Assembly (NCBI GenBank): GCA_965243205.1
Contig: CBDEUK010000002.1
Coordinates: 993,589-1,057,588 of the forward strand
DNA from: Gammaproteobacteria bacterium
Lineage (GTDB): Bacteria > Pseudomonadota > Gammaproteobacteria > Eutrophobiales > Eutrophobiaceae
DNA: 64,000 nt
Direction: 5' to 3'
In this document: piece by piece, positions 29,590 through 57,368 of the stretch
Numbering within the stretch: the stretch's first letter is position 1
How the letters are laid out: every line of letters starts with the position of its first letter
Made by a program: the position numbers and the translations under genes
Notes under the pieces: generated by a model
The model's input: only the letters and a program-made list of their open reading frames with translations
Told to the model about the DNA's origin: nothing
The model's database searches: none

Positions 29590-29617
29590 TTGCATTCAAT
29601 TAAGTTATGCCTATAAT
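29590..29617 (+). promoter_or_regulatory. near-consensus sigma70 promoter (TTGCAT-16-TATAAT) with GC-rich discriminator
   Basis: Read directly from the sequence. GCGCGCC follows the -10 element. It sits 33 nt upstream of the divergent nucleotidyltransferase start. Confidence 0.5.
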
Positions 29618-29792
29618 GCGCGCCCATTATGAAACAAGAAACAATTAACACGCAAACGAACTTTATAATGTTGTCTCTAGAAAGCAATGTTAACAGACTT
29701 CATCGTGCCTATAAAAAACCGATAGGTGATGTAGCACATTAGATCAGGTTATCTAAAACATAGAGCCTGATAAAAATTATCATGGCTCAAAC

Positions 29793-29830
29793 AAAACCCC
29801 GATGAGCCGTGAGGACTTCGGGGTTTTTTA
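29793..29830. terminator. rho-independent terminator (CCCCGA...TCGGGG + T6), A-run on the other side
   Basis: Hairpin plus T-run. Closes a ~200-nt transcription unit started by the promoter at 29590. Confidence 0.6.
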
Positions 29831-29842
29831 TTGGAGAAAATA

Positions 29843-30062: not shown

Positions 30063-30184
30063 TGGCATGTGCACCATAGATAGGTGAGCTGACTGTTAAT
30101 CAGTTGTATGCAAGTTACCTGCAAGGATGCAGGTAAGGGGCGTAAGCAGGAGCGGTAAGCTTTCAAATCTTGCCGTGCCAGCCA
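30063..30184 (+). ncRNA. tRNA-like element A: acceptor stem + D-arm + anticodon arm (GUU, Asn-like) + encoded CCA; T-arm replaced by an ~70-nt structured module
   Basis: Read from the sequence: 5' TGGCATG pairs with 3' CGTGCCA-G-CCA. D stem CACC/GGTG. Anticodon stem GCTGA/TCAGT with loop CTGTTAA. No TTCGA T-loop. Extra hairpin ACCTGCA-AGGA-TGCAGGT. Confidence 0.4.
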
Positions 30185-30192
30185 AATTGAAC

Positions 30193-30269
30193 GGATCGGT
30201 AGCTCAGTCAGGTAGAGCGATTGGTTGAAACCCAATGCGTCGGTGGTGCAAAGCCATCTCGATCCACCA
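30193..30269 (+). tRNA. tRNA-Phe(GAA)-like, degenerate T-loop, encoded CCA
   Basis: GGATCGG-TA-GCTC-AGTCAGGTA-GAGC... D-arm nearly identical to E. coli tRNA-Phe. Anticodon loop TTGAAAC. T-loop is TGCAAAG rather than TTCGAxT. Acceptor 7 bp then A-CCA. Confidence 0.55.
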
Positions 30270-30281
30270 ATTGATTTAAAT

Positions 30282-30501
30282 GGGCATGTTGGCAAATGGA
30301 TGCTACCACCTAAAACGGTTGCTGAAGTGGTCCGAGTAAAACCGGCAGTCGCCTAAGTTGTTAAACCAGCATGGTTGAGGATGCAGGTTAATGCTCTTGG
30401 TAAGCGGGTGTTAACTGGCGCGCGTTTCCAATGGTTTAACAAGTCAAGAGTAATGCCTTGATTGTGATTGTATGTGGGTTCGATACCCGTCATGTCCACC
30501 A
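30282..30501 (+). ncRNA. tRNA-like element C (220 nt): acceptor stem, D-arm, canonical T-arm and CCA, with an ~150-nt insertion between anticodon region and T-arm
   Basis: 5' GGGCATG pairs with 3' CATGTCC-A-CCA. T-arm GTGGG-TTCGATA-CCCGT. Stem ACCAC/GTGGT encloses a 17-nt loop. Insert contains the GGATGCAGGT motif shared with element A. Confidence 0.4.
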
Positions 30502-30512
30502 AATTAAGATAT

Positions 30513-30636
30513 ACGCCTATAGCTCAATGGCGAGAGCAACAGAATACGAATCCGTTAGGTGTAGGTCTCTTGCATGGATGCAAGAGAGGGGCGCGAGCAG
30601 GAAGCGACAAGCTTTCAACTCCTACTGGGCGTACCA
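30513..30636 (+). ncRNA. tRNA-like element B: acceptor stem + canonical D-arm + CCA, no T-arm, carries the same extra module as A
   Basis: 5' ACGCCTA-TA-GCTC-AATGGCGA-GAGC; 3' TGGGCGT-A-CCA. Hairpin TCTCTTGCA-TGGA-TGCAAGAGA followed by GGGGCGCGAGCAGGAAGCGACAAGCTTTCAA. Confidence 0.4.
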
Positions 30637-30652
30637 ATTTTAAATGTAGTAA

Positions 30653-30727
30653 TGGTCGTTAGCTTAATGGAAAAGCAGCTGCCTTTTAAGCAGCCAGATA
30701 TCCGTTCAAGTCGGATACGACCAACCA
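30653..30727 (+). tRNA. tRNA-Lys(UUU), canonical cloverleaf, encoded CCA
   Basis: Acceptor TGGTCGT/ACGACCA. D GCTT/AAGC. Anticodon stem GCTGC/GCAGC with loop CTTTTAA. T-arm ATCCG-TTCAAGT-CGGAT. Then A-CCA. Confidence 0.7.
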
Positions 30728-30741
30728 ATATAAAAGATTTT

Positions 30742-30827
30742 GTCGGTGTGGCGGAATTGGCATACGCACTGGTTTCAGAAACCAGCGTCTTTATGACATG
30801 CAGGATCGTAGCCTGCCACCGATACCA
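30742..30827 (+). tRNA. tRNA-Leu(CAG)-like (class II, long variable arm), degenerate T-loop, encoded CCA
   Basis: GTCGGTG-TG-GCGGAATTGGCATACGC is a Leu-type D-arm. Anticodon stem CTGGT/ACCAG with loop TTCAGAA. Variable arm GTC-TTTAT-GAC. T-stem GCAGG/CCTGC with loop ATCGTAG. CACCGAT-A-CCA. Confidence 0.55.
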
Positions 30828-30980
30828 AATGTTGTTTTATGAATCGAATTTATAAAACACAAAAGCGTTAGAGATAACATGTTTGAGAACAGCGGTTCAG
30901 GCTCGTGAGTTCCTGTCCGGTGCACTGAAGTTTGAATCACAAAGTGTATACCGTTCGATAAGGACATGCTTTGACACCAA

Positions 30981-31053
30981 GTGGATATAGCTCAGTTGGG
31001 AGAGCACCTGACTCATAATCAGATTGTCGAAGGTTCGATTCCTTCTATCCTCA
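30981..31053 (+). tRNA. tRNA with CAU anticodon (Met elongator or Ile2-lysidine type); no encoded CCA; one acceptor mismatch
   Basis: GTGGATA-TA-GCTC-AGTTGGGA-GAGC-A-CCTGA-CTCATAA-TCAGA-TTGTC-GAAGG-TTCGATT-CCTTC-TATCCTC-A. T2:T71 mismatch. Followed by GAAAAG. Confidence 0.6.
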
Positions 31054-31135
31054 GAAAAGTGGCGGAATGGTAAACGCACAGACCTTATAAGTCTGCGGGC
31101 AAAAGCCCTTGTGGGTTCGAATCCCACCTTTACTA
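31053..31135 (+). tRNA. class II (Leu-like D-arm, long variable arm) tRNA with anticodon UAU; abuts the previous tRNA; no CCA
   Basis: AGAAAAG-TG-GCG-GAATGGTAAA-CGC-A-CAGAC-CTTATAA-GTCTG-CGGGCAAAAGCCCTT-GTGGG-TTCGAAT-CCCAC-CTTTACT-A. A3:A70 mismatch. Confidence 0.5.
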
Positions 31136-31429
31136 CTAAGCCGATGTCGAAAGACATCATTACAACAGGGTGCCGTGAATATCCTGTTTATGAAAGATAA
31201 GCAGTCAGTATCTGGAACAACAATTTATTCATCATGATTAAAACCTGTGTTTAGGTAAGAACCTGTTTTATTACGTGACAGGAAATATTCGTCGTTAAAA
31301 AGGAAAACCACCAGGATAGGTGAAACGAATGATTCCACTTACTTAATTAAAACAGAATATTCAAACGTAAACCCGTTTTAGTTGTGTCAGGTGTCCTGTC
31401 TTTATTAACTATATAAAAGGAGAAATTTA

Positions 31430-32572
31430 ATGTTCTTTCTTAAACGTATTGTCGTAGCCGACTACGAACGTGCGTTGCTGATCAAGAACCGCAGTGTTCA
31501 ACGTGTGTTGGAACCTGGCGTGTATCGTTTTTTCGATCCGCTACGTCGTCTCAAGGTTGAGATCTACGATCTAAATGAAGCCGAATTCAATTTTGAAAAA
31601 TTGGATTATTTGATCAAACAAAAAACTGATTTGGTCAATGAACATTTTCAAGTAATTGAACTTGGCGAATTCGAGGTTGGTCTGGTTTATAAAAACGGTC
31701 AGCTCGAAGATGTATTAGAACCTGGTTCTCGTCAGCTGTATTGGAAAGGCTTAGTCGATATCGACGTTGAAGTAGTTGATATCCAAACTGACTTTATGGT
31801 TGCTAAGAATAAATTAAAAGTTCTGGTTCGTAACCGTAATACAAAGTTGGCGAATAAACTGTCTCAGTTTATCTATATCGCTGAGGTAGAACAGAACTGG
31901 GTTGGTTTACTGCTCGTTGATGGCGAGTTGGTTGAACAATTAAATGCTGGTATTTATGCATTTTGGAAGTTCAATCGCAATATCAAAGTTGAGCAGGAAG
32001 ATTTGCGAGTACAAAACATGGAAGTAAATGGTCAAGAAATCTTGACCAAGGATAAGGTGACGCTACGTGCCAACATGGCAGTAACTTTTAAAGTGACTGA
32101 TGCCATTCAAGCACGTAGCTCAGTTAAGAACTGGGTGGATCATCTATATCGCGAAGCGCAATTTGGACTGCGCCAAGCTGTGGGTACTCGAAGCTTGGAT
32201 ACGCTACTCGCAAATAAAGGCGAATTGGATCGTGGAGTCTACGATGCTGTTCGCAATCAGGTGGCTGATAACGGCATTGAAGTAATTAATGTTGGCATCA
32301 AAGATCTGATCTTACCTGGTGAAATGAAGGATATTTTGAACCAGGTTGTTGAAGCAGAGAAAGTCGCGCAAGCGAATGTGATCAAACGTCGTGAGGAAAC
32401 TGCGGCAACACGTTCTCTGTTGAATACAGCGAAACTCATGGATGAGAACCCTACCCTGCTGCGATTGAAGGAGCTGGAAACTCTGGAAAAAGTCACTGAA
32501 AAAGTTGACCGACTCACTGTTTTCGGCGGCCTTGATGGGGTCCTGCAGGATACCGTTAAGATCAATGTTTAA
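31430..32572 (+). CDS. SPFH/band-7 (stomatin/prohibitin-like) domain protein, apparently soluble, with triplicated N-terminal motif
   Basis: SPFH core (…EVINVGIKDLILPGEMKDILNQVVEAEKVAQANVIKRREETAA…). No N-terminal TM. Three ~35-aa repeats (…VLEPG.Y…VE..DL…). Confidence 0.75.
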   Translation: MFFLKRIVVADYERALLIKNRSVQRVLEPGVYRFFDPLRRLKVEIYDLNEAEFNFEKLDYLIKQKTDLVNEHFQVIELGEFEVGLVYKNGQLEDVLEPGSRQLYWKGLVDIDVEVVDIQTDFMVAKNKLKVLVRNRNTKLANKLSQFIYIAEVEQNWVGLLLVDGELVEQLNAGIYAFWKFNRNIKVEQEDLRVQNMEVNGQEILTKDKVTLRANMAVTFKVTDAIQARSSVKNWVDHLYREAQFGLRQAVGTRSLDTLLANKGELDRGVYDAVRNQVADNGIEVINVGIKDLILPGEMKDILNQVVEAEKVAQANVIKRREETAATRSLLNTAKLMDENPTLLRLKELETLEKVTEKVDRLTVFGGLDGVLQDTVKINV

Positions 32573-32656
32573 TGATGAACTGAGATCAACCCATCAAATT
32601 TGAAAGGTTCGGGGAATTGGCCCCGAACCGCTTATTAATATAAATGGAGAAATACA

Positions 32657-33250
32657 ATGTCTATCGTATGTGCAGCAATTAAAAATGGTGAAATAGCAAT
32701 CGCTGCTGATACTCAGTTAAGCTTTGGCTCTTTAATTGTTGGCTCTGATAATTTAGATAATGCATCTAAGTTATGTATGGTCGAAGATAATGTTGTTGGT
32801 ATCGTTGGTTGGAATGCTGTCAGTAGCTTATTCGAATATGTAACAGAAGAGCATAAAGAAATATTTAATTTTTCAGACAGAAAAAATATTTTAAAAACAT
32901 TATTTAAATTACATAAGCTATTAAAAAATGAATATTTTCTTGAAACTGTTGAAGATAGAGATCAACCTGTTGAATCAATTCAACTCAGAGCCATTATCAT
33001 TAATAGTGGTGGTATTTATGAGATCAATAGCTATAGAGAAGTCAATCATTATTTAAAGTACTGGGCAATCGGTTCTGGACGCTACTATGCATTAGGAGCA
33101 ATACATGCTCAATATGAAAGCCAAATTAATGCTAAAGACTTGGTATTAAACGGCGTAGCATCTGCATGTTGTTTTGATGAAAGTTGTTCTTTACCTTCTC
33201 AAATAGAAATCATCAAAGCAAAACAAGAAAGTATTGCTATGGCAAGTTAA
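32657..33250 (+). CDS. HslV-like Ntn-hydrolase (proteasome beta-type) peptidase homolog
   Basis: N-terminal MSIVCAAIKNGEIAIAADTQLSFG parallels HslV (TTIVSVRRNG.VVIGGDGQVSLG). AIGSGRYYALGA parallels the HslV GSGG region. No hslU nearby. Confidence 0.6.
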   Translation: MSIVCAAIKNGEIAIAADTQLSFGSLIVGSDNLDNASKLCMVEDNVVGIVGWNAVSSLFEYVTEEHKEIFNFSDRKNILKTLFKLHKLLKNEYFLETVEDRDQPVESIQLRAIIINSGGIYEINSYREVNHYLKYWAIGSGRYYALGAIHAQYESQINAKDLVLNGVASACCFDESCSLPSQIEIIKAKQESIAMAS

Positions 33251-33277
33251 ACTATTATTTACATTAAGGAAAATACA

Positions 33278-34474
33278 ATGCCTATTAAACAAATTATTAC
33301 CAAAGGGAAAGTCCCCGTTAAAATTTATACTGATGACATTGAATTTGAAGCGTATAACCAACTGAAAAATATTTCAGAATTACCTTTCATTCACAGCCAT
33401 GTCGCGGCAATGCCTGATGTACATATGGGTAAAGGTGCAACCGTTGGTTCAGTTATTCCAACTAAAGGCGCAATCATCCCTGCTGCGGTTGGCGTTGATA
33501 TTGGTTGTGGCATGAATGCCATTCGTTTGTCATTGAAAGCAGAACAATTACCTGACAATTTACGCGGTTTGCGCACTACCATTGAATCGGTTGTGCCTGT
33601 TGGTTTTAACATGCATAAAAAAGATATGGCAAAAGACTCAACCATTCGTGCGGTTGCTAAAGGTCTTGAACCTATCATGGCAAAGCATAAAAAACTCAAT
33701 AACAGTAAAAACAAACCGTTTTTAACTTGGGTAAGACAATTAGGTACTTTAGGTGGTGGTAATCATTTTATTGAAATTTGTCTGGATGAAGAAGATTTTG
33801 TTTGGATCATGTTGCATTCAGGAAGCCGAGGCATCGGTAACCGAATTGGTCAATACTTTATTGAATTGGCTAAGAAAGACATGCAACGTCTACAAATCAA
33901 CTTACCAGATAAAGACCTCGCTTACTTTACTGAAGGTACGGATTATTTTGATGACTATGTTGAAGCCGTTAGTTGGGCTCAAGACTATGCCATGATCAAT
34001 CGTAAAGAAATGATGCGTATGATTTTGGATGTCTTAAAGAAAAAACTACCAAGCTTTAAGATCGATAAACAAGCGATTAATTGTCATCATAATTATGTGA
34101 CTGAAGAAATCCATTACGATGAAAAAGTCTTTGTGACACGTAAAGGTGCAATTAAAGCTGGAGATGGCGATTTAGGTATTATCCCAGGCAGTATGGGAGC
34201 ACGTTCTTATATTGTTTCTGGAAAAGGTAATCCTACATCATTTAACTCTTGCGCACATGGTGCCGGAAGAAAAATGAGCCGTACCCAAGCAAAAAAACAA
34301 TTCAATACAGTCGATGTTGAAAAACAAACCGAAGGTGTTGAATGTCGTAAAGACAAAGGCATCATCGATGAAATCCCTGGTGCTTATAAGGATATTGATC
34401 AAGTGATGGAAAACCAATCGGATTTGGTCGATATTGTTCATACATTAAAACAAGTGGTTTGTGTTAAAGGTTAA
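33278..34474 (+). CDS. rtcB: RNA 3'-phosphate/2',3'-cyclic phosphate ligase RtcB
   Basis: 398 aa. The metal-binding motifs (MPDVHMGKGATVGSV, GVDIGCGM), the HNYV region, and the length all match RtcB. Confidence 0.9.
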   Translation: MPIKQIITKGKVPVKIYTDDIEFEAYNQLKNISELPFIHSHVAAMPDVHMGKGATVGSVIPTKGAIIPAAVGVDIGCGMNAIRLSLKAEQLPDNLRGLRTTIESVVPVGFNMHKKDMAKDSTIRAVAKGLEPIMAKHKKLNNSKNKPFLTWVRQLGTLGGGNHFIEICLDEEDFVWIMLHSGSRGIGNRIGQYFIELAKKDMQRLQINLPDKDLAYFTEGTDYFDDYVEAVSWAQDYAMINRKEMMRMILDVLKKKLPSFKIDKQAINCHHNYVTEEIHYDEKVFVTRKGAIKAGDGDLGIIPGSMGARSYIVSGKGNPTSFNSCAHGAGRKMSRTQAKKQFNTVDVEKQTEGVECRKDKGIIDEIPGAYKDIDQVMENQSDLVDIVHTLKQVVCVKG

Positions 34475-55922: not shown

Positions 55923-57368
55923 TTGCAGTCATACTCGCGTCCTAACATTTATCTTTGGAGCGATGCAATGTCTCAATTCGGTCGACGCTTTTTGTTTGTA
56001 AGCGTACTTTTCTTCTGGTTTACAAACACTCAGTTACCCGCATACGCTGCGACTGGCGCATCAGCCACGACCGAACTAGCACGCAAAGCATTGCCTCGGG
56101 GTAGCGTAAAAGACTTCGGCCCAGCTCCTAAAGTTACCAACGCACCCTTATCTAAAAAAACACAACAAGCGCTTGATACTGTCTTCGCTAGCTTAGATAG
56201 TAATGAATGGTCTCAACCACAAATTGATGCATTAAAAACCATCGTAGAATCGGAAGATGTTAGATTAGCCTGGTTGATGGCCGATCTTATGCGCTTCATT
56301 ACGAGCCGTGAAATCAATGATGAATTAATCAGCACTGCTGACAAACTGTTGGGTAGTAATTTCAAAGGATTCGATCAATGGAGTAAGTTAACAGAAGCTT
56401 TGATTGCCTGGGACATCCCTGCTCCACCCAACTACTTAAAGTACAAACGCCAACTGTTTACAACAGCATTACCTGCATGGGAGCCGCTTTTTATCGAAGG
56501 CGATATAGACTGGCGACATGTCACCTGGGGTGGAGTCCGCATTGACGATCGTGAATATGATAAAACAGATGAAGCTTGTAATTGCATTCCAGCTGCAGAT
56601 AACCCAGAAGTCACGAATGCTAAAGAAGCAACTTGGTTAGAAGATGATGACATAGTTTTTGGTATAGAAGTTAATGGTGAGTATCGTGCTTATCCGCGCC
56701 AGATTATGGAAGTACGCGAAATGGTGAATGACACACTTGGCGGTCGTCATCTAGGTATTCCTTATTGTACTTTATGTGGCGCAGCCCAAGCCTGGTTCAC
56801 TGACGATGTACCAGAAGGTGTTGAACGACCTGTGCTTCGAACATCAGGCTTATTAATTCGATCCAACAAAGTCATGTACGATTTAAATACCATGTCTGTA
56901 CTGGATACGTTTCGTGGCAATGCAGTTACAGGGCCTTTAGCCAAACGTGGACTTCAACTCAAACAAGCCGCTGTTGTCACAACCACCTGGGGTGAATGGA
57001 AACGTTCACATCCAGATACCACAGTTCTTATAGAAGAACTTGCACTTGGGCGTGACTTTGACTTTCGCAACAACAGAGATGCAAATGGCCCAATCTTTCC
57101 AATAGGTGACGCCGACCCGCGCTTAGCGGTACATGAAGAAGTACTTGGTATTGTTACCAAGTCAGGTACGCCTTGGGCATTTCATGTGCCTAGCGTGATT
57201 AAAGTGTTGGATGCAGGTGAAGCAGTCACCGTCGAAGATATAAATATCATTCTTGATGCAGGTGGTGTACGAGCCATTAACGATAAAGGTGAATCACTGG
57301 GAACACATCAATCATTCTGGTTTGCCTGGTCACAGTTTTATCCAAGCACTCAATTATGGCCTCAGTAA
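55923..57368 (+). CDS. hypothetical secreted protein
   Basis: 481 aa with signal peptide and a conserved CTLCGAAQ segment. Confidence 0.5.
   Translation: MQSYSRPNIYLWSDAMSQFGRRFLFVSVLFFWFTNTQLPAYAATGASATTELARKALPRGSVKDFGPAPKVTNAPLSKKTQQALDTVFASLDSNEWSQPQIDALKTIVESEDVRLAWLMADLMRFITSREINDELISTADKLLGSNFKGFDQWSKLTEALIAWDIPAPPNYLKYKRQLFTTALPAWEPLFIEGDIDWRHVTWGGVRIDDREYDKTDEACNCIPAADNPEVTNAKEATWLEDDDIVFGIEVNGEYRAYPRQIMEVREMVNDTLGGRHLGIPYCTLCGAAQAWFTDDVPEGVERPVLRTSGLLIRSNKVMYDLNTMSVLDTFRGNAVTGPLAKRGLQLKQAAVVTTTWGEWKRSHPDTTVLIEELALGRDFDFRNNRDANGPIFPIGDADPRLAVHEEVLGIVTKSGTPWAFHVPSVIKVLDAGEAVTVEDINIILDAGGVRAINDKGESLGTHQSFWFAWSQFYPSTQLWPQ

Follow-up and report, generated by a model that had tools for sequence, protein, structure and literature searches.

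What the extra hairpin module in members of one tRNA gene array represents is the question raised by this locus. The window (the whole stretch of 64,000 nt that was analyzed) holds a tRNA array that is directly followed by an operon (31430..34474) ending in RtcB, which lies 3 kb downstream. The original prediction was that three array members, elements A, B, and C, share an additional RNA module whose compensatory base changes argue for a selected structure. We consider it probable that a miniature insertion element has interrupted A and B, both accessory tRNA genes, and that the covariation of the hairpin is a property of this element. The features referred to throughout are these:

30063-31136, + strand: tRNA array (cloverleaf reading, ARAGORN, and Rfam).
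30063-30184, + strand: element A, tRNA-Asn(GTT) with encoded CCA and an interrupted T-loop (cloverleaf reading; ARAGORN after insert removal).
30115-30161, + strand: copy A of the putative insertion element, 47 nt (covariance model 67.7 bits; family alignment), made up of a hairpin (30115-30136) and a conserved tail (30137-30161), with a boundary ambiguous by up to 2 T.
30193-30269, + strand: tRNA-Phe(GAA) (ARAGORN and Rfam).
30282-30501, + strand: element C, a tRNA-like gene with about 140 nt extra (sequence reading).
30513-30636, + strand: element B, tRNA-Arg(ACG) with encoded CCA and an interrupted T-loop (Rfam; ARAGORN after insert removal).
30566-30613, + strand: copy B of the putative insertion element, 48 nt (covariance model 62.3 bits; family alignment), made up of a hairpin (30566-30587) and a tail (30588-30613), with a boundary ambiguous by 1 T.
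30653-30727, + strand: tRNA-Lys(TTT) (ARAGORN and Rfam).
30742-30827, + strand: tRNA-Leu(CAG) (ARAGORN).
About 30828-30983, + strand: conserved tRNA-like block X (comparison with the related array L001).
30981-31053, + strand: tRNA-Met(CAT) (ARAGORN and Rfam).
31053-31136, + strand: tRNA-Ile(TAT) (ARAGORN).
31430-32572, + strand: Band-7/SPFH protein (Pfam Band_7, E=1.7e-26).
32657-33250, + strand: proteasome-like protein (Pfam Proteasome, E=2.5e-6).
33278-34474, + strand: RtcB RNA ligase (Pfam RtcB, E=7.5e-134).

Elements A and B are accessory tRNA genes belonging to the array ahead of the Band-7/proteasome-like/RtcB operon. ARAGORN called five array tRNAs (Phe GAA, Lys TTT, Leu CAG, Met CAT, and Ile TAT), and at gathering score Rfam recovered three of these five (Phe, Lys, and Met) plus 30513-30633, which it reported as a tRNA with a long insertion. 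In the latter case, element B scored 40.9 bits against RF00005 (gathering 29) and was aligned with a 54-nt insertion in the T-loop. Element A, with its insert present, was called by neither ARAGORN nor Rfam. Its cloverleaf can be read as an acceptor stem (tggcatg/cgtgcca), a D-arm, anticodon loop CTGTTAA, variable loop tgtat, and T-stem gcaag/cttgc, with discriminator and CCA present; B likewise reads as a full tRNA-Arg(ACG), its T-stem being gtagg/cctac and its CCA present. The module had been placed at the position of the variable arm and T-arm. This is not so: each gene retains its variable loop and the full 5-bp T-stem, and the module lies within the T-loop. As encoded, 54 nt (A) or 55 nt (B) lie within the T-stem, versus the normal 7 nt, and the final 7 nt there match a canonical T-loop, TTCAAAT for A and TTCAACT for B. 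When 30115-30161 is removed in silico, ARAGORN calls tRNA-Asn(gtt), and removal of 30566-30613 yields tRNA-Arg(acg). Because removal restores both the ARAGORN calls and the 7-nt loops, the module is an insertion between G53 and T54. It should be noted that both host tRNAs keep perfect stems, an observation that runs counter to the explanation we favor.

The claim that A and B have a common module of ~50 nt, with hairpins as originally quoted, is borne out by the sequence. The hairpins are TTACCTGCA-AGGA-TGCAGGTAA at 30115-30136 in A and TCTCTTGCA-TGGA-TGCAAGAGA at 30566-30587 in B, and both are followed directly by GGGGCG..AGCAGGA...AAGCTTTC. The two copies are about 76% identical across 51 aligned columns, the long module pattern had no match in 100 shuffles, and the family covariance model (R1, filters off), with scores of 67.7 and 62.3 bits, identifies them as the only full copies in 64 kb. 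They have a GC content of 54-57%, versus 35.9% for the window. Both carry an extra base ahead of AAGCT that is missing from most other copies of the family, and the hairpin of B departs from the family consensus through several compensated pairs. These compensated differences could mean long maintenance in place and hence function, which would count against our preferred reading. No known RNA family accounts for the module. The proposed look in Rfam for Y-RNA-like or similar families gave nothing for it: searches over 30115-30161 and 30566-30613, at gathering and at E<=10, returned no family, including Y RNA, ribozymes, and introns. HDV-like, hammerhead, twister, and pistol folds are rejected on the same grounds and also because the 4-nt hairpin loop is incompatible with them. 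A group I/II or small-ribozyme core likewise has no Rfam match over the inserts; a group II match at a locus from another genome (L076, below) is to the intron that hosts the copy.

Element C does not belong with A and B, contrary to the claim of a third copy. It retains an acceptor stem, D-arm, T-arm TTCGATA, and CCA, and at 30364-30389 has a hairpin-like piece that resembles the hairpin of the insertion element. However, all it has in common with the module is GGATGCAGGT and a partly complementary 5' strand, and this 10-mer has a further chance occurrence within coding sequence at 57209. C goes undetected by model R1 even at E<=10, and a scan of single deletions with ARAGORN gave many inconsistent tRNA calls and no unique solution. 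We regard C as a separate case or a badly decayed one.

By its gene content, the host locus is of the RtcB/Band-7/b7a-tRNA RNA-repair type. The identical gene order (Band-7, proteasome-like, RtcB) occurs in the closest related array (L001, RtcB 86% identical) and in a contig of P0121. A tRNA-like gene beside Band-7 and RtcB corresponds to the “b7a-tRNA” locus, a prediction of Burroughs and Aravind (2016) as relayed in a preprint (bioRxiv 10.1101/312249), where the tRNA-like RNAs are thought to be cofactors. As in b7a-tRNA loci, tRNA-like genes here lie directly upstream of Band-7 and RtcB; unlike the plain tRNA-like b7a-tRNAs described so far, there is an array of about nine, two of them with an insertion, and the insertion is no part of the definition of that system. 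In cyanobacteria, accessory tRNA arrays have likewise been reported to be co-located and co-regulated with rtcB (PMC8421152). In two relatives (L138 and L139), a single tRNA-Met(CAT) precedes Band_7-RtcB, and the insert is absent from this b7a-type tRNA. A phage tRNA array was rejected as an explanation for the locus because the neighbors are chromosomal (purB, purL, sulfate permease, and tag). Upstream, the - strand carries genes for a sulfate permease, a GNAT acetyltransferase, a Tag glycosylase, and a nucleotidyltransferase, and the window also holds the ordinary chromosomal genes purB and purL (nearest PurB match 79% identical; Thiotrichales MAG 69%). The sole phage matches (70-110 nt) are to the uninterrupted tRNA-Phe, and the module has no match in phage and viral contig collections.

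Collecting homologous copies from other genomes and building a covariance model, as had been proposed, revealed a family present in many Gammaproteobacteria. At least 15 other gammaproteobacterial genomes carry the 47-mer TTGCCTGCATGGATGCAGGTAAGGGGCGTGAGCAGGACGCGGAAGCT, mostly between genes. In a genome scan limited to one genome per species and to the pattern GGATGCA..GGGGCG..AGCAGG, for which copy numbers and taxonomic breadth are lower bounds, the matches listed comprise many chance hits in GC-rich genomes alongside clear full-length TTGCCTGCATGGATGCAGGTAAGGGGCGTGAGCAGGACGCGGAAGCT copies. Algibacillus agarilyticus has the 47-mer at seven or more loci; further hosts among the matches listed are Kangiella, Endozoicomonas, Methylobacter, and Pseudoalteromonas, with MAGs of Chromatiales, Cellvibrionales, Ectothiorhodospiraceae, and other Gammaproteobacteria, and PLSDB adds copies in Pseudoalteromonas chromids, Catenovulum, and Saccharobesus. 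Dispersed copies score 58-80 bits with the covariance model, and mean column identity across orders is 88%. They are mostly intergenic, and none is near a tRNA. The Algibacillus copies are carried inside a MITE of ~290 bp with TATAGTC...GACTATA ends. Elsewhere the family is found within further repeats, in a group II intron that has decayed, and in a plasmid ORF (pglX). Subfamilies 2 and 3, referred to below, are defined on a handful of copies. The hairpin variant of B was not found in PLSDB. We rejected a recurrent association with tRNAs: in the metagenomes scanned, the module pattern with TTCRA after it had three chance hits, none in a tRNA, and thus no other tRNA-embedded copy, and the other RtcB loci examined have no copy of subfamily 1. 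Full-text literature searches found no description of the element. Most likely, then, it is an apparently undescribed miniature insertion element that is conserved across gammaproteobacterial orders.

The element has a simple layout, in which a 9-bp hairpin (loop NGGA) precedes a tail of ~25 conserved nt (GGGGCG-NN-AGCAGGA-...-AAGCT). It starts with TTGCC (or TCGCC) and finishes with AAGCT, and the 5' hairpin is its only inverted repeat. Among 18 distinct copies, the hairpin is paired in 96% of cells, and both sides have changed in four of the nine pairs: pair 2 (UA/CG/GC), pair 3 (GU/AU/GC/UA), pair 5 (CG/UA), and pair 7 (GC/AU). None of 500 shuffles matched the observed covariation score, and shifting the hairpin register lowered the paired fraction to 22-47%. 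Pair 3 is G-U in 15 of the 18 copies, so pairing is better in the strand shown than in its complement. The prediction that the hairpin varies yet stays paired is therefore well founded, on these compensatory changes at four of nine pairs. The second stem, for which AAGC/GCTT in A and GAGC/GCTT in B had been offered as covariation, fared otherwise: the change is a one-sided A-U to G-U. Neither it nor a possible GCG/CGC stem shows anything but one-sided changes or breaks in the 18 copies, with nothing compensatory in the family, and the 25-nt tail is conserved in sequence without covariation. The hairpin covaries across the family, and the selected structure is a property of the element wherever it is located. 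The compensatory changes are best explained by selection acting on the element, rather than by a functional arm gained by the tRNA. Selected RNA structure, in other words, stands for the hairpin and falls as a tRNA-specific arm. The caution once attached to it, that the module might prove to be a mobile-element terminal repeat, was apt in spirit, in that this is a dispersed insertion family, although not a described one.

Several genomes permit comparison of occupied and empty sites. In L001 the order is Phe-Arg-Lys-Leu-X-Met, and the tRNA-Arg(ACG) is without the insert, having a plain gcaag-TTCGAAT-cttgc T-arm. In Endozoicomonas (L076), a copy of the 47-mer lies within a group II intron. A related intron (L127) reads GCGCCGG^TTGTGCACC, and L076 has 47 extra bases at that point, so the empty site is CGG^TTGTGCAC with a 47-nt insert. 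Given that an Rfam group-II-D1D4-3 match ends inside the L076 copy, we considered whether the module could be an intrinsic part of group II introns; the L127 alignment rules this out by showing a 47-nt insertion, and the same alignment rules out the start codon or domain IVa hairpin of the intron-encoded protein. Two more copies, of sister subfamilies, occur downstream in the L076 intron. One of them, 47 nt long, frameshifts the reverse-transcriptase ORF, which is truncated anyway, the intron being a pseudogene. In pglX of a Moellerella plasmid, a 48-nt subfamily-2 copy is in frame and reads DDCMDAGGRATQDAKA, with no stop codons, and there is an equivalent pglX match in a Salmonella plasmid. 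The E. coli homolog lacks exactly these 16 codons (protein 86% identical over the compared 180-residue stretch). A composite repeat in Pseudoalteromonas (L132) has a subfamily-1 47-mer and a subfamily-3 48-mer, both absent from the copy of the repeat at L134, and a subfamily-2 copy at L123 occupies the loop of a REP-like palindrome. Target duplication is absent, beyond an ambiguous T/TT, in three empty-site comparisons (four insertions) and, based on tRNA structure, in A and B. As read from these alignments, the empty-site cases show that a unit of 47-48 nt inserts independently, lacking terminal inverted repeats and target duplication.

The choice of target also has a pattern. G^T is the reading at each of the four subfamily-1 sites whose empty state is known (gcaaG^TTcaaat, gtagG^TTcaact, gcggcgG^TTgtgca, and ctctttG^T(T/A)). 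TT directly follows nearly all subfamily-1 copies and, in the verified cases, is part of the target. For three of these four sites (A, B, and the intron), insertion was at the 5' edge of a 7-nt loop with a short closing stem, the intron loop being CGG^TTGTGCA-CCG. The inserts of A and B are at the identical T-loop nucleotide position in tRNAs with different stems. There are 2596 GTT sites in the window, about six of them at T-loops. Since both window copies are at these rare sites, the distribution points to a preference for T-arm-like hairpin loops, even allowing for purging from coding DNA. The loop-edge geometry of the target matches that of a T-arm, which would explain the two tRNA T-loop insertions.

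How might such an element move? It would insert directly 5' of TT, in most cases at the 5' margin of a hairpin loop of 7 nt, and its own hairpin would presumably be needed while a trans-acting enzyme handles the element in single-stranded form. We infer a single-stranded intermediate and a mobilizing enzyme that may be HUH-type or reverse-transcriptase-linked; a single-strand mechanism would naturally yield the loop preference. We rejected a nearby transposase as the source, as a crude scan for HUH/Y1 transposase motifs near copies (8-kb loci and the 64-kb window) found none. Family copies in transcribed units are all in sense orientation (six of six: A, B, three in the intron, and pglX). This orientation, the position of the element beside RtcB, and the negative HUH/Y1 scan are points counter to the explanation we prefer. 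The interrupted tRNAs are probably impaired or inactive because the 47-48-nt insert replaces the 7-nt T-loop that is needed for the D-loop/T-loop elbow.

The element behaves like the selfish repeats known as REP, MITE, and RPE, yet fails the defining features of each. Like REP/REPIN sequences (mobilized with RAYT), it is short, hairpin-forming, dispersed, and mostly intergenic, with a compensated 9-bp stem of which one strand pairs better. Unlike them, it has no GTAG or CGTC tag (it starts TTGCC/TCGCC), consists of a single hairpin with a 25-nt non-palindromic tail conserved across orders, has a low copy number per genome, and makes precise 47-48-nt insertions in genes, introns, and repeats; a RAYT gene was not seen in the 8-kb loci or the 64-kb window. 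It resembles MITEs (e.g., Correia elements) in being non-autonomous, small, and nested in other elements, but lacks terminal inverted repeats and target-site duplication and is smaller by a factor of two to ten. Rickettsia palindromic elements are also selfish hairpin repeats found in RNA genes and, in frame, in protein genes; reportedly (the account of Ogata and colleagues from 2000, on size, host, and insertion into genes) they are 100-150 bp long and confined to Rickettsia, and their sequence is unrelated. A possible likeness to IS200/IS605 and PATE elements would lie in the missing target duplication, a fixed flank (TT here, AA^ on the other strand), a presumed hairpin dependence, and strand asymmetry, and the far end of our element also reads CAA. 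Those elements exceed 100 nt and have subterminal hairpins at both ends, whereas this one has a single hairpin: the alignment has no second end hairpin, and the crude motif scan near copies found no TnpA gene. Incidentally, we rejected an integron attC site and an IS91-type target: the G^TT is similar to both, but the element does not end in G, RYYYAAC/GTTRRRY boxes are missing, and the target tetranucleotide is split rather than abutted.

There are other ways to read these data. One, which we regard as doubtful, is that the 47-mer represents a minimal mobile element of a new class, one that homes to T-arm-like loops (stem-G^TT-7-nt loop) via an RNA or single-strand intermediate, or that is removed by RtcB. 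By one route, it might be ligated or reverse-spliced into structured RNAs and then reverse transcribed; alternatively, it might be removed at the RNA level with RtcB. If this were true, its presence in tRNAs of the RtcB/Band-7 locus would be functional rather than accidental.

Another reading, and an unlikely one, is that the insert was exapted, staying in the RNA and extending the tRNA-like RNAs associated with Band-7 as a scaffold or a site for protein binding, comparable to the extra helix of YrlA Y RNAs that work with Ro60/RtcB systems. A locus of RtcB/Band-7/b7a-tRNA type would suit such an arm, as would the intact cloverleaf stems, the use of one position by two different tRNAs, and a hairpin kept by compensated changes with a G-U pair conserved in 15 of 18 copies. 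However, the insert is absent from the L001 array and from the b7a-type tRNA of L138/L139, and the element also occurs in intergenic DNA, a dead intron, repeats, and an ORF of unrelated genomes. Moreover, Rfam has no Y RNA match, and Pfam finds no TROVE (Ro60) domain in nine flanking ORFs.

RtcB completes tRNA splicing in archaea and animals, and archaeal tRNAs can have non-canonical introns in the T-loop. The insert could be a mini-intron, 47-48 nt being excised from the precursor and the halves joined by the neighboring RtcB to give functional tRNAs. As the host locus is of the RtcB/Band-7 RNA-repair type, RNA-level removal is conceivable, but we consider it decidedly improbable. As with archaeal T-loop introns, there is a short insert at positions 53/54 and an RtcB ligase nearby (3 kb downstream). 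Two further points speak for removal: an exact canonical 7-nt T-loop results from it, and the copy in the intron reverse-transcriptase ORF is 47 nt, no multiple of three. Unlike archaeal tRNA introns, the element has a bacterial host, has no splicing endonuclease, and also occurs outside tRNAs, and its junctions have no bulge-helix-bulge. The 5' junction falls between two stacked helices, the T-stem continuing straight into the element hairpin, and the 3' junction is in AAGCT^TTC, without 3-nt bulges flanking a 4-bp helix. There is no match to a ribozyme or intron family, and 47 nt is far below the size of self-splicing introns. At 48 nt, the pglX copy is in frame and stop-free, as expected if translated; the intron hosting three copies is already a pseudogene; and the insert is missing from L001, whose RtcB operon is the same. 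Local duplication or gene conversion, by which an aberrant ancestral T-arm would have spread from one array member to another without a mobile element, has very little to recommend it, as the 450-bp spacing of A and B and their common extra base before AAGCT (missing from most other copies) are set against T-stems, tRNA bodies, and hairpin stems that all differ and a family with verified empty sites in many other genomes.

Interruption of A and B by a miniature insertion element, if this reading is right, explains why ARAGORN missed both genes and Rfam found only one. It would also mean that a 47-nt element with one hairpin, no inverted ends, and no target duplication is conserved across gammaproteobacterial orders, and that its target rule (5' of TT, at a loop edge) makes the universal T-loop GTTC a natural landing site. 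The element is small enough to occupy in-frame sites in proteins, as well as introns, and may offer a clean system for the movement of hairpin repeats of REP size. Its RtcB neighborhood provides a testable link to RNA repair or splicing.

Copies of the 47-mer, the dispersed 47- to 48-nt hairpin-bearing insertion element that splits two tRNA genes of the window, occur in other hosts within quite different sequence contexts. In an Endozoicomonas MAG (L076, 6170-8000), three 47-mers of different subfamilies are nested in a decayed group II intron, the reverse-transcriptase ORF of which ends after ~80 codons. On a Moellerella plasmid, the BREX methyltransferase gene pglX contains a subfamily-2 copy of 48 nt in frame (L126, 3007-3054). 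This copy contributes 16 residues absent from the E. coli homologue; an equivalent match is found in a Salmonella plasmid. In Algibacillus agarilyticus (L008, L013, L025, L046, L049, L065 and L093), the 47-mer is part of a multi-copy repeat of ~290 bp with the ends TATAGTC...GACTATA, and is followed there by a decayed second hairpin (CTTACATGGATGTAAG). Finally, GTCATTCCCGCGAAAGCGGGAATCCAGTC-type palindromes lie densely upstream of a further RtcB gene (L123, 6330-6900), and two of them carry a subfamily-2 47-mer in the loop.

The window has its own RtcB operon (Band-7/proteasome-like/RtcB, 31430-34474), of the type tied in the literature to "b7a-tRNA," a tRNA-like gene beside Band-7 and RtcB genes. 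The middle gene encodes 197 aa with a weak match to the Proteasome family, and that of L001, the locus with the closest related tRNA array and RtcB operon, encodes 303 aa with no match in Pfam. Three segments within or beside the array are common to the window and L001:

Window 29590-29835: unit of ~230 nt upstream of the tRNA array, with a conserved -10 box (TATAATGCGCGCC) and a strong terminator at its end
Window 30828-30983 (L001 1040-1195): block of ~150 nt in the interval from tRNA-Leu to tRNA-Met
Window 31137-31420: conserved leader of ~280 nt between the tRNA array and the Band-7 gene

In the array, the T-loop of tRNA-Phe is noncanonical (UGCAAAG), and that of tRNA-Leu is AUCGUAG. The final member is called as tRNA-Ile(TAT) in the window (31053-31136), but in L001 (1263-1336) the call is for a suppressor-like tRNA whose anticodon is TTA. 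Element C (30282-30501) is a tRNA-like gene of ~220 nt that may belong to type II and have GCT as a Ser-like anticodon, and its extra sequence holds a perfect 9-bp inverted repeat (GTTAAACCA/TGGTTTAAC).

For the block that separates tRNA-Leu from tRNA-Met, the window and L001 share ~88% identity, more than for the neighboring tRNAs. The block has no match in Rfam. In its fold, the termini pair over 7 bp (GUUAGAG/CUUUGAC) and ACCA comes next, as at the acceptor end of a tRNA. We consider this block a candidate RNA of the RtcB/Band-7 locus, either tRNA-like or Y-RNA-like.
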